Made by a program: the position numbers and the translations under genes. Source: a virus (lineage: Duplodnaviria > Heunggongvirae > Uroviricota > Caudoviricetes). Taken from it: a DNA stretch of 64,000 bases. The notes under the pieces were generated by a model that had not been told where the DNA came from, searched no databases, and saw nothing but the letters and a program-made list of their open reading frames with translations. The stretch's first letter is position 1. Every line of letters begins with the position of its first letter. The stretch lies in IMG/VR virus record IMGVR_UViG_2690316311_000019. One strand, written 5' to 3'. Shown in pieces: positions 30,498 to 36,011 of the stretch.

Positions 30498-30782
30498 CTA
30501 ACTTACCTGAACCAGGCCGTCTCCGGACGCTACGGTAGATCCGCATGAAACAGGGTCACCAACGCATACGATCCCTTTACCATTGACGGTAAACCATGCC
30601 CTGGTTGATATAGCTTGCCCACCGTGCGTACTGTTTCCATCGGTATGCTGTGCATATTGCTTACCATCAACTAACACTTCGACTCCGTTGACTTTAAGTA
30701 GTGGTTCACTCTCTACAGGAGGCCTGGATGGGAATCCTCCGTGCCCCGAACAAATGCTGTCTTTTGTTGCAATGCTTGCCAC
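30498..30782 (-). CDS. PAAR-like domain protein
   Basis: 94-aa ORF with GHGG, HGG and VNGKGIVCVGDPVSCG motifs resembling PAAR spike-tip proteins; GTG start. Confidence 0.45.
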   Translation of the reverse strand: MASIATKDSICSGHGGFPSRPPVESEPLLKVNGVEVLVDGKQYAQHTDGNSTHGGQAISTRAWFTVNGKGIVCVGDPVSCGSTVASGDGLVQVS

Positions 30783-30951: not shown

Positions 30952-31236
30952 ATGCAGATGGAGCTAATAAGCCGCAAAGAGTTCGATAGCCGTGTAACCA
31001 GCGGTGAACTCGACAACTTGCAGGCTATCAAGGTGAAAGAAGGCTTTTGCCTCATTGGGAATCAGAGCGGAATAAATCGCGTTTTTATGCTTCGCCGTAC
31101 GGATTTGAAGCCATTTGTCTGGAAGAACGAAATTGGTCCCAGCTCATACGCTCAAACGAGGGGGTGCCACAACCTGGCCTTTTTCTACAAAGACGAGCTT
31201 TCTGTGGTTGATATTCAAGGGTTACAACATGTTTAA
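30952..31236 (+). CDS. Hypothetical protein
   Basis: ATG at 30952 after GGAG; ORF-track TTG start at 30880 lies inside the operator. Confidence 0.45.
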
Positions 31237-32134
31237 GCACTGGAAAAACATTACTATTTATAAACTTTCTCGTGAGGCGGATCTGACCGACTTAGAAGAT
31301 AAAAAGAAAATGATCCTTTTCACGCCATGCGGTAGTCAGGATATGGCCAAGTTCGGTTTTGTATCGCCATTTGGTGATAATTCTGAAGTTATCGCTATGC
31401 ATGGAAATGGTTTTATCCTTGTTGAAGCAAAGCGCGAAACAAAAATTCTTCCCCCGCCGGTTATCCAGCGAGCTATTCAAGAAAAAATTGAAAAACTTGA
31501 GCAAGAACAAGCGCGTAAACTGAAGAAAACAGAGAAGGACTCCCTGAAAGACGAAGTTCTGCATTCTCTTCTGCCACGGGCTTTTTCAAAGTTTTCTGTT
31601 ATCCAGGCGATCTACGACGGTTCAACTAAACGTATCTATATCAATGCCAGCGCGCGGCAGGCAGAGGATATGCTCGCGCTTATGCGTAAGTCTCTGGGTT
31701 CTCTTCCTGCTGTTCCCCTGAGTGTTGAAAATCCCATTGAATTAACGCTGACCGACTGGGTACGTGATGGTAGTGCTCCACAGGGATTTCAAATGGGGGA
31801 TGCGGCAGAACTTAAGGCAGTGCTTGAGGATGGCGGTATTGCCCGAGTGAAAAAGCAGGATTTGGGAAGCGATGAAATTTCCACACACCTGGAAGCTGGC
31901 AAGCTCGTCACTAAGTTGGCACTCGACTGGCAGAACCGCATTAAATTTACACTGGACCATAACTTCAGCCTTACCAGCGTCAAATTTGCGGATGAATTGC
32001 TTGAGCAGAACTCTGATATTGATAGTGAAGATGTTGCGCAGCGACTGGACGCAGATTTCTTCCTGTTGACCAGTGAAATTTCGTGCCTGGTTGATGCTCT
32101 GGTAAATGCCCTTGGCGGAGAGGCTAAGCAGTGA
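31229..32134 (+). CDS. rdgC: Recombination-associated protein RdgC homolog
   Basis: Strong similarity to E. coli RdgC along the length ([45 protein letters not shown]); start MFKHW at 31229. Confidence 0.85.
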
Positions 32135-35100
32135 AAGAGCTGTGCTATGGATCTGTTTGCAGTGGAATTGAAGCCGCGAGTATTGCCTGGGAACCGTTGG
32201 GTATGCGTCCGGCGTGGTTTGCTGAAATCGAGCCTTTTCCATCGGCCGTTCTTGCGCTCCGCTGGCCCCATGTTGCCAACCTTGGCGACATGAAAAAACT
32301 TGCCAAAAAAGTCTTGGCTGGGGAAATCGAATCCCCTGACGTGCTCGTCGGGGGAACACCATGTTTTACCGCGGGGCATATGGTTCTTTGTAAAAATGGC
32401 TATAAACCAATAGAAAATGTTTGCCCTGGTGATTACGTAGTCAGTCATCTCGGGCGGTTACAACAAGTAAAAAGAGTTGGTTCAAAAATAGCTAATACGG
32501 GGTTACTTAATGCCGTTGGGCAGCCTTTAGGTATAAGAACAACCAATGACCATCCCTTCCTGGCTGTTCGGTGGAAAGCCCAAAACACCCGGAAAAATGG
32601 CACATATTTTAAGAGAGAGTTGTTGTCTGAACCGGAATGGCGAGCAGCATGTGATATGCCGGGATATCAATGGTGCGCTCTAACTAATTTCAATATTGCA
32701 TTTCCAGATATTTGTTCTCGGTTCTTGTCTGAAGAACAGGCTATGTATCTTGCGGGCGCTTATGTTGGCGATGGATATATTAGGAGATGGAGAGGTAAAT
32801 CTAAGAAGGCGGTTGTTTTTGGCATAAATTGCCAGAAATTGAGAAAGTTTCATTGCCGCATACCAGAAAACATATTTTCCGTGGCAAGCGAAATCCGAGG
32901 GAGCATCAAAGTAACCTTGAATGATACGTGTTATGCCAATTGGCTTAATGAACATTTTGGCGAGTTAAGCCATGCTAAGCGTATCCCTGCATGGGTGATG
33001 TCGCATCCATTGCGTCATGTGTTTTTACAAGGCTATCTTGATACTGATGGGACACCAAGTGGTAAAGCGGGATTTAGAATTAATAGTGTTAGTTCTGCGC
33101 TTGCTTGGGGCGTTGCGGGGTTGTCACAGACTTGTGGTTATGTTTCTTCGGTCAGCTTTATTGAAGTTGAGCCCAAAAAAGTGATCGAGGATCGCGTGGT
33201 AAATCAACGGAATTATTATCAGGTAACAATCTGCCCGCAGAAATTGTCACGTAAATCAAGATTGGCTCATGGAATGCTTTTACGAACAGTCAAAGAGTTT
33301 AAATCGGTAGGCCTAGATACTGTATACAACATAGAAGTCGAAGGTGATCATTCCTATATCCTCAATGGTGCGGTGGTCCATAACTGTCAGGCATTCAGTA
33401 TCGCGGGATTACGTGGTGGGCTTGATGATGAGCGTGGCGCGCTAACTTTAAAGTATGTGGAGTTTGCAAATGCAATTGACGACAAACGGGCTGAGTCATT
33501 TCTCAAACCAGCCGTTATCGTCTGGGAAAATGTCCCAGGAGTCTTGTCATCGGCAGATAACGCCTTCGGATGTTTCCTTGCCGGATTGGCTGGAGAAGAT
33601 GTGCCATTTGAACCAGGTGATCGACCTGAATCAGGAAAAAGCAACGCGTTCTGGCGGTGGGATGGCAAAACCGGTTGCCATGTTCCAAAGTGGCCGCAGT
33701 GTGGTTGTATTTATGGACCGCAGCGAAAAGTGGCCTGGAGAATCCTTGATGCCCAATACTTCGGAGTGGCACAACGACGCCGACGCGTGTTTGTTGTCGC
33801 AAGTGCTCGAACAGATCTCGATCCCGCAACGGTACTTTTTGAGTTCGAAGGCGTGCGCCGGAATATTGCGCCGAGCAGAGGCGAGGGGAAGGAAACTACC
33901 AGATATACTTCAAACATCGCTATCAGAACTTGCGATGATACAAACATAATTGCCATGGCACATGGGCAAGGAGGGGCTGAGATAAAAACCGATAATTCGG
34001 CACCAACTTTGACATGTAACCATGAAGCACCAATTGTATTGCTCGGCGACGGTAGAATGCGCCGTCTTACCCCTGTCGAATGTGAAAGGCTGCAAGGTTT
34101 TCCTGATTGGCATACGTTGATCCCTACGGAAAAGCGTAAAAAAGTTAATTCAGATGAACTGGCATATCTGCACAATCACTATCCAGATTTAAGCGAAGAA
34201 GAGGCCGCAATGCTTGCAGCTGACGGACCGCGTTACAAAGCGATCGGCAATAGTATGGCAATACCAGTAATGCGCTGGATTGGCGATCGGATTACTAAGG
34301 CCGTATGTCGGCAGAAAGAAGGAAGTGAAACAAAAGAGCGAAAAGTTAAACCAGCGGCAGAATTCGAACGGTCCATATTCAAATGGGCTGGTGGAAAATT
34401 TGGTGTTCTGGAACAAATCTTTCGCTATTTGCCAGAAGGGAAGCGCCTGATTGAACCTTTCGTTGGTGGCGGAGCTGTCTTCATGAATGCCGGATACCAG
34501 GAAAATCTGCTAAATGATGTGAATGCTGACCTGATTAACTTTTACAAGACTCTGCAACGCGAGGCGCATTCACTTATCACTCTGGCACATCGTTTCTTCC
34601 AGGACTACAACACACAGGAAGGATACCTGGCAGTACGGAATGCGTTTAACAAACAAGTCTATGATGATTTACATCGCGCAGCGGCGTTTTTGTTCCTGAA
34701 CCGACATTGTTTTAACGGATTGACGCGTTACAACCAGGCCGGTGAGTTCAATGTCGGTTATGGGAAGTATAAAACTCCGTATTTCCCATTACAGGAGATG
34801 GAAGCCTTCCTCGGTGCGGAAGGGCGGTCTGAGTTTGTATGCGGTGATTTTGCAGCGGTGATTGAAGCTGCCGGAGAAGGAGATGTCATCTTTTGCGATC
34901 CGCCGTATGAACCGCTTCCAAATACAGAGGGATTCACGAACTATTCCGGTCATGACTTTAAGTTTGAAGAGCAAAAACGCCTGGTGTCTCTGTTGACGGA
35001 TGCTCATCGTCGAGGTGCAAAGGTTCTCATTACTAACAGTGGCGCGCCAAACATCAGAGAGCTTTATCATGACAGTGGCTTCAGAGTGGAACCTCTTTTT

Positions 35101-35172
35101 GCCAGACGTTCTGTGTCTTGTAAGGGGGACACTCGAGGTGTAGCTCATGACGTTTTGGGTATATTGCTCTAA
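32131..35172 (+). CDS. dmt: Bifunctional DNA methyltransferase (C5-cytosine domain interrupted by an intein, then Dam-like N6-adenine domain)
   Basis: GTG start coupled to the rdgC stop; C5-MTase motifs (GGTP / CQAFS split by insert, [26 protein letters not shown]) then Dam motifs (KWAGGK, DPPY). Confidence 0.85.
32362..33384 (+). other. Intein with LAGLIDADG homing endonuclease domain inserted in C5-MTase motif IV
   Basis: 341-aa insert: starts CFTAGHMV, block B TTNDHPFL, two LAGLIDADG-like motifs ([19 protein letters not shown]), terminal [21 protein letters not shown] followed by +1 Cys; removal restores GGTPCQAFS. Confidence 0.85.
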
Positions 35173-35924: not shown

Positions 35925-36011
35925 GGGGAGTTAGTCCGTAGGGGTAGCGGGGTAGACTGTAAATCTACTGTCATTGCGACTCGGGTGGTTCGACTCCATC
36001 ACTCCCCACCA
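35925..36011 (+). tRNA. tRNA-like element with Tyr (GTA) anticodon loop and long variable arm; non-canonical D-arm region
   Basis: Acceptor GGGGAGT/ACTCCCC, anticodon arm GTAGA-CTGTAAA-TCTAC, T-arm GGTGG-TTCGACT-CCATC, CCA; four nt instead of two between acceptor and D-stem. Confidence 0.35.

Follow-up and report, generated by a model that had tools for sequence, protein, structure and literature searches.

A predicted LAGLIDADG intein in the cytosine-methyltransferase motif of dmt from P1-like phage-plasmids

The DNA analyzed here, hereafter the window, is a stretch of 64,000 nucleotides from the IMG/VR virus record IMGVR_UViG_2690316311_000019 (Caudoviricetes). Its dmt gene, which encodes a fused C5-cytosine and N6-adenine DNA methyltransferase, is interrupted by an in-frame insert of 341 codons (32362-33384). 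Judged by its sequence and predicted fold, the insert is almost certainly a class-1-type bifunctional intein, i.e., a Hint splicing domain combined with a LAGLIDADG homing endonuclease. It very probably still splices, and active or recently active homing by its endonuclease is somewhat favored; the account that combines an intein of the named kind with splicing and homing is considered quite likely as a whole. The intein is a common polymorphism of the P1 family and no rarity of the window.

Structure of the interrupted gene

The precursor open reading frame (ORF) of dmt was identified by ORF calling and translation at 32131-35172 on the + strand, which carries all parts of the gene described below, and encodes 1013 aa with a predicted mass of 113.1 kDa. 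It consists of the N-extein (32131-32361, 77 aa), the intein (1023 nt without stop codons, predicted mass 38.3 kDa) and the C-extein (33385-35172, 595 aa plus stop); the predicted mass of the spliced Dmt is 74.8 kDa. The N-extein contains C5-methyltransferase motif I (32149-32181) and, as seen in the alignment with P7 Dam and P1 Dmt, ends with VLVGGTP, the first half of motif IV. The insertion point is located between Pro77 and the catalytic Cys of this motif; the insert starts with CFTAGHMV and closes with NGAVVHN. The original prediction, made from the sequence letters, had described this 341-aa in-frame insert, and each of the motifs it quoted (TTNDHPF, both LAGLIDADG motifs and VVHN/C) was located. 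Its expectation of an uninterrupted motif in intein-free dmt homologs was borne out as well: P7 Dam and P1 Dmt are contiguous at GTP/CQAFS, and excision of the insert would restore the GGTPCQAFS of P7 Dam. The claimed position directly before the catalytic Cys follows from the same alignment and from the match to Pfam DNA_methylase (PF00145), which is split and continues directly behind the intein with profile position 71. After removal of the insert, the exteins carry the C5-methyltransferase motifs I, IV, VI (ENV), VIII (QxRxR), IX and X in order.

The C-extein comprises the remainder of the C5-methylase (motifs IV-X) and a Dam-type N6-adenine methylase. Between motif VIII (QRRRRVF) and motif IX lies the variable target-recognition region of the C5-methylase (33877-34059), represented here by a short cassette of the P7 type. 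The Dam-like domain (34372-35157) is of the D12 class, with DPPY at 34897-34908 (residues 923-926). Its presence in the same polypeptide, as stated in the original prediction, was seen in the matches of MethyltransfD12 (PF02086, E=1.9e-56) and TIGR00571 dam (249 bits, cut-off 114.85, residues 748-1007) to the C-terminal part of the ORF. In the precursor, 341 residues separate the two halves of motif IV, and C5 activity can therefore soundly be expected to depend on splicing; the Dam half forms a domain of its own at the C-terminus and could be active before splicing.

The neighboring genes, together with an identity of the locus of 99-99.7% to the Escherichia phages OP279344 'P1' and vB_EcoM-Ro157c2YLVW, identify the host gene as dmt of a P1-like phage-plasmid. 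P7 Dam (AAQ07538) and reference P1 Dmt (YP_006537) have orthologous exteins (96% and 91% identical overall), the same C5+Dam fusion and the same operon as the window, but lack the intein. Reference P1 Dmt also differs in its long recognition cassette and in motif IV, where Gly is replaced by Trp at codon 74 of dmt in NC_005856 (VWGTPCQ in place of VGGTPCQ), a change present in only one of 75 loci. In the laboratory P1 enzyme, this change may impair the C5 half, which could explain the uncertain cytosine activity of this enzyme.

Identification of the intein

Regarding profile matches, the insert yielded Pfam LAGLIDADG_3 with E=3e-8 and 34.2 bits (cut-off 22.5) over residues 221-284, and NCBIfam TIGR01443 intein_Cterm with 30.8 bits (cut-off 15.6). 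The match to Pfam Hint_2 (E=3e-6, 28.1 bits) was 0.3 bits under the gathering threshold of 28.4, and the match to Pfam Intein_splicing was weak and below its gathering threshold. A profile search for Hint and LAGLIDADG domains had been proposed along with the original prediction; the endonuclease was thus recovered above its cut-off and the Hint domain narrowly below it.

A single-sequence AlphaFold prediction of the intein was unusable (predicted local distance difference test, pLDDT, of 30) and was superseded by an AlphaFold2 run with a 48-sequence alignment, which gave a pLDDT of 96.2 and a predicted template modeling score of 0.92. The top Foldseek match to this model was PI-SceI (E about 1e-16), followed by the TliVMA and PhoVMA inteins, PI-PfuI and PI-PkoII (E 1e-16 to 1e-9, PI-SceI included) and, after the inteins, by I-DmoI, I-SceI and I-AniI, which are free LAGLIDADG enzymes and matched over about 180 columns. 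The order of secondary structure elements in residues 124-267 of the model fits the pseudo-dimeric alpha-beta-beta-alpha-beta-beta-alpha fold of LAGLIDADG enzymes. A sequence search against PDB chains yielded weak matches only, among them the Spl DnaX mini-intein (E=0.0015), with the C-terminus of which block F of the dmt intein aligns, and PI-PkoII (E=0.024).

The splicing blocks were located in the sequence, and their conservation was assessed in 48 homologues. Block A (CFTAGH, 32362-32379) opens with Cys1, the presumed first nucleophile; Cys1 and Phe2 are invariant. Block B (TTNDHPF, 32539-32559, residues 60-66) contains the TxxH residues Thr61 and His64, and block F (33322-33357) contains Val321 and Asn323, which are invariant, as well as Val326, Asp329 and Tyr332, which are nearly so. 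Block G (NGAVVHN plus Cys+1, 33364-33387), to which the TIGR01443 match refers, closes the intein with His340-Asn341. Thr61, His64, Asn341 and Cys+1 are likewise without exception in the homologues. By its position, Cys+1 has two roles, being the predicted nucleophile at the splice junction and, in the methylase PCQ motif, the catalytic Cys. The two LAGLIDADG motifs are located at 32746-32778 (residues 129-139, including LAGAYVGDG) and 33022-33054 (residues 221-231, including LQGYLDTDG and covered by LAGLIDADG_3). Their presumed catalytic residues, Asp137 and Asp229, are conserved in at least 90% of the homologues, as is Gly230, and Gly132, Gly138 and Gly224 are invariant. Among the 11 haplotypes of the P1-family intein, LAGLIDADG motif 1 is free of polymorphism and the catalytic positions Cys1, Thr61, His64, Asn341, Cys+1, Asp137 and Asp229 never vary.

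The layout of a Hint domain with an inserted LAGLIDADG domain is shared with PI-SceI (Saccharomyces VMA1), PI-PfuI, PI-PkoII, TliVMA and PhoVMA, and PI-SceI and the archaeal inteins also have Cys1, TxxH, His-Asn and Cys+1 in common with the dmt intein. They differ from it by an identity of only 12-17%, a length of at least 454 aa (versus 341 aa) and another host protein, whereas the dmt intein has a native Pro at position -1.

Homologous inteins at the same site

Translated searches yielded phage C5-methylases with a homologous intein at the junction P/C...HN/C(Q/T). The identity to the P1-family intein was 48% for Mannheimia phage vB_MhS_587AP2, 30% for Propionibacterium phage B22, 27% for the Escherichia jumbo phages A4, ph0011 and UE-S1, and 26% for Pseudomonas phage Lana. 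These inteins share insertion point and length with the dmt intein and align with it from end to end; the hosts differ, the P1-family host being a C5+Dam fusion and that of the Mannheimia copy a truncated methylase. A profile search found about 55 full-length relatives of the intein, nearly all with PF00145, and an exhaustive search of 1.84 billion representative proteins gave at least 186 clusters (50% identity) at E<=1e-30, in most of which the intein starts at residue 70-90. All nine distant relatives that were sampled are C5-methylases interrupted before PF00145 position 71, one of them (P0097) with a C5+Dam fusion as host. The P1-family intein forms a cluster of its own and is at most 56% identical to any other. 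By this homology it is of a kind already known, same-site relatives being widespread in phage C5-methylases. Of 47 homologues, 45 have Pro at position -1, and the residue at +1 is Cys, followed by Q or T; the family may thus be naturally adapted to splice after proline.

The Mannheimia phage vB_MhS_587AP2 has the closest relative in a phage record (1264-2583), in a Dmt-like gene downstream of an ORF that is annotated only as hypothetical and that, at 906 nt, has the length of hrdC. Its C-extein ends 22 residues past the junction with the remainder of the methylase out of frame, i.e., the intein is intact and the host gene broken; the protein cluster was seen on 578 contigs. In the intein of phage Lana, LAGLIDADG motif 1 reads YYAGNGW, with Asn for the catalytic Asp, and the endonuclease may be inactive there.

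Mycobacteriophage matches from tblastn (about 27% identity) were considered as the same element and rejected, their hosts being N6/N4 methylases and other proteins; they are generic intein relatives only. Inteins of actinobacteriophages (PMC5050341, PMC9957025, bioRxiv 10.1101/2025.01.02.630785) resemble the dmt intein in having LAGLIDADG domains, in residing in orphan phage DNA methylases and in their patchy occurrence with evidence of horizontal transfer. They differ in their hosts, the characterized ones being for the most part N6/N4 methylases (PF01555), in their exteins and insertion sites, and in that no enterobacterial phage-plasmid is among them. The C-5 methylase family (IPR001525) is listed among known intein hosts in a 2025 survey (bioRxiv 10.1101/2025.01.02.630785). 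Full-text literature searches, with most subscription journals outside their scope, yielded no paper naming an intein in dmt of P1, P7 or P1-like elements, an absence which is weak evidence that the dmt intein has not yet been described in print.

Distribution in the P1 family

An alignment of five proteins showed that P7 Dam (672 aa) and reference P1 Dmt (754 aa) are without the 341 residues, which are found in the proteins of OP279344, Ro157c2YLVW and the window. In addition to the window and four phage records, 80 further IMG/VR loci were collected. The 82 P1-family loci in which the distance between the two exteins was determined fall into two classes, 57 with 0 nt and 25 with exactly 1023 nt, and no intermediate value occurs. 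In PLSDB, intein DNA (at least 95% identical) was present in 129 of 498 dmt-bearing plasmids (about 26%), the 129 being assigned to Escherichia (114), Salmonella (14) and Shigella (1); plasmid hosts of the intein include E. coli, E. albertii, Salmonella and Shigella. Regarding complete E. coli genomes, the intein was found in 152 of 5,426 (153 records), 148 times on plasmids and five times on chromosomes. At least 80% of the intein was covered in all 153 E. coli records and in 126 of the 129 plasmid records, and no shortened or mini-intein forms were found among about 300 copies.

According to the original prediction, characterized dmt genes of the P1 family are not known to contain an intein. 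This holds for the reference genomes of P1 and P7; the intein is, however, present without annotation in the phage records RCS47, vB_EcoM-Ro157c2YLVW and OP279344 ('P1 del res del mod'). The intein-bearing protein is labeled Dmt, DNA or cytosine methyltransferase, or 'Dam family ... methyltransferase', and an intein is not mentioned in the product names among the matching records listed; some fragmentary proteins have been auto-named 'Hint domain-containing protein'. OP279344.1 ('Escherichia phage P1 isolate del res del mod') combines the intein with the short P7-type cassette, unlike reference P1, and at the dmt locus is not derived from the sequenced P1 c1-100 lineage.

Some dmt alleles are damaged. 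In the intein-bearing locus L070, the N-extein is cut short by a premature stop at codon 61, and one intein-less allele encodes Leu (CTT) at position -1 where the others encode Pro (CCT), so that its PCQ motif is broken. Such occasional pseudogenes fit the dispensability of dmt in dam+ hosts.

Variation and spread

The 23 intein copies that were analyzed represent 11 haplotypes, all of them intact ORFs, and diverge by at most 1.1%. The flanking exteins (720 nt) of the intein-bearing alleles differ by up to 4.9%. The exact intein haplotype of the window was found with both the 672-aa and the 754-aa extein type, and both types of recognition cassette occur with and without the intein. The occurrence of a uniform intein in alleles that have diverged and differ in their target-recognition domain suggests recent horizontal spread. 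The region between motifs VIII and IX (33877-34059, residues about 583-643) is a swappable cassette; in the alignment, P1 and Ro157 have 82 more residues than the window in this part. At least four length classes of the exteins (672, 754, 807 and 862 aa) occur among the P1-family loci, with other spans in plasmids, which suggests a diversification of C5 specificity that does not depend on the intein.

All intein-bearing alleles have CCA as the last codon before the junction, and all intein-less alleles have CCT there, except for one with CTT. A synonymous block, CTG GTG GGA GGG ACA CCA, was seen only next to inteins, at four loci; this would be the trace expected from co-conversion with a foreign donor. 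Such flank variants, the uniformity of the intein and the lack of decayed copies are compatible with homing. The association between the intein and single-nucleotide polymorphisms (SNPs) peaks within about -120 to +170 nt of the intein (r2 of 0.25 versus 0.05). This peak had been considered as proof of co-conversion by homing and was dropped after a control for background linkage, which decays on a similar scale between SNPs of dmt. The linkage pattern shows a mosaic, recombining gene and not homing specifically.

Proposed mechanism and alternative explanations

In the proposed mechanism, the 113-kDa precursor would splice itself by the standard class-1 route: an N-S acyl shift at Cys1 would be followed by trans-thioesterification to Cys+1, then by succinimide formation at Asn341, aided by His340, and by an S-N shift. 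The products would be a Dmt of 672 aa (75 kDa) with an intact PCQ motif and the layout of P7 Dam, and a free 38-kDa endonuclease; C5 activity would be impossible before splicing, with the catalytic loop split. In a cell that harbors both an intein-carrying and an intein-less P1-type genome, the endonuclease would cleave the latter at the uninterrupted GGTACGCCT|TGTCAGGC region, its presumed substrate being the intein-less dmt site of the P7 type, GGTACGCCTTGTCAGGC (also written GTCGGGGGTACGCCTTGTCAGGCATTCAGTATC). Recombinational repair would copy the intein in, along with a short stretch of flank. Homing with such repair would explain the occurrence of one near-uniform intein in diverged dmt alleles.

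Several points weigh against this account of splicing and homing. The Hint_2 score is marginally too low, and both splicing and cleavage are inferred from the sequence. The residue at -1 of the splice junction is a native Pro, which has been reported to block or slow most tested inteins at this position (PMC6486613); the splicing of Dmt may hence be slow or conditional. P1 depends on methylated GATC at pac, and in dam- hosts this methylation is supplied by dmt (PMC12707154); the gene was scored as non-essential for P1 in a CRISPR interference screen in a standard dam+ host (PMC10695390). Selection to keep splicing may therefore be weak in many hosts, and, with dmt only conditionally important, the usual argument that inteins are protected by residing in essential genes is weakened. 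The endonuclease domain is under weak constraint in the P1 family (omega about 0.63, based on only 13 changes). The agreement between intein-SNP and background linkage can be explained by homing or, equally well, by ordinary homologous recombination among P1-like plasmids.

The last two points are the basis of the alternative that survives best, although it is judged unlikely: splicing would be intact, the endonuclease would no longer home, and the intein would have spread by ordinary homologous recombination and the clonal success of carrier plasmids. Decay of linkage on the background scale makes a separate homing signal unnecessary, and dmt is visibly mosaic, with swapped recognition cassettes. 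Arguments against a loss of homing are the retention of both LAGLIDADG Asp residues and the invariant Lys206 in every copy, the lack of shortened forms and an intein that is far more uniform than the alleles carrying it. A costly 1-kb passenger at a frequency of about 26% across several genera is also easier to understand with drive.

The proline at -1 and the two Cys residues at the junctions have a bearing on a further idea, which is regarded as doubtful, namely that the intein is a post-translational gate uncoupling the activities of Dmt, or that the family is adapted to splicing after proline. With a gate, the unspliced precursor may supply Dam (GATC) methylation, and C5 methylation may follow after splicing that is slow, being limited by Pro(-1), or redox-sensitive. 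Taken as a conditional switch, in which splicing is delayed or gated (by redox-sensitive Cys1/Cys+1 or slow chemistry at Pro -1) and Dam activity comes first for pac methylation, with C5 activity later or under some conditions, the idea is improbable. Both junction nucleophiles are indeed Cys, the -1 Pro should slow the first splicing step, and only one of the two activities in the polypeptide is split; but the intein-less alleles are the majority and evidently viable, so that no switch is required, and the pattern of presence and absence is that of a selfish element.

A splicing-dead relic is hardly probable. Under this explanation the C5 half would be permanently disrupted and only Dam would be used, either as part of the unspliced fusion or by way of an internal start. 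The unfavorable Pro, the separate Dam domain, the internal late promoter predicted for P7, which is largely conserved in the window, and the dispensability of dmt in dam+ hosts would all be compatible with it. Against it, the splicing nucleophiles and assisting residues are intact in 23 of 23 copies, and the N-terminal splicing domain (Hint-N) is under strong constraint (omega 0.11). The exteins of intein-bearing alleles are likewise constrained (omega 0.18) with C5 motifs I, IV, VI, VIII, IX and X intact, and a Pro native to the whole family argues that the family is adapted to it.

A native methyltransferase domain, which the original prediction had named as the explanation to be excluded, or a non-splicing Hint module of the bacterial intein-like (BIL) type is effectively refuted, despite the Hint_2 and Intein_splicing scores below threshold, by the precise absence of the segment from P7 Dam and P1 Dmt with their contiguous PCQ, by the terminal His-Asn and Cys+1, which BIL modules typically lack, by the TIGR01443 match above cut-off and by the predicted fold of the PI-SceI type.

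Operon and neighboring features

The gene directly 5' of dmt is hrdC (RdgC family; 31229-32134, + strand), the end of which was taken from the ORF call and the start inferred from the 906-nt hrdC of collinear records; it overlaps the dmt start by 4 nt. According to the annotation of the collinear loci of P1, P7, OP279344 and Ro157, the window contains the C1-controlled operon uhr-hrdC-dmt, as in P1 and P7. Upstream of this operon, an ORF on the - strand (30498-30782) is the counterpart of P1 upfC, annotated in RefSeq as a PAAR-motif protein similar to T4 gp5.4. Downstream of dmt follow tRNA-Asn, tRNA-Tyr and tRNA-Thr. The tRNA-Tyr (GTA; 87 nt, 35925-36011) is also found in Ro157c2YLVW and is absent from the annotations of reference P1, P7 and OP279344.

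Within dmt, positions 34113-34193 correspond to LPdam2, the internal late promoter predicted in the P7 record, with 5 differences in 81 nt. Transcription from LPdam2, if it is functional, could be confined to the end of the C5 domain and the Dam domain. A consensus scan of the + strand found no sigma-70-like promoter inside dmt.

Implications

P1 is a classic, genetically tractable phage-plasmid of E. coli. With intein-bearing and intein-less dmt alleles at a ratio of about 1:3, its family offers a ready system in which the homing of an intein, its cost and co-conversion can be studied at the level of a phage-plasmid population, and for which isogenic partners already exist in P7, reference P1, RCS47 and OP279344. 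The junction after proline, where most engineered inteins fail, makes the element a possible scaffold for protein engineering. The element is real but of an ordinary kind of selfish element, and its value lies in a tractable P1 model of homing and splicing and in the native proline junction; no new principle is involved. As proteins of 1013 and 1095 aa are labeled only as Dmt or Dam-family, their size differences may be misread. Many P1-like plasmids carry resistance genes, and methylome or restriction-evasion phenotypes of these plasmids could depend on whether and when splicing occurs. If the intein does act as a gate, its carriers would time or condition anti-restriction C5 methylation differently from the intein-less P1 and P7.

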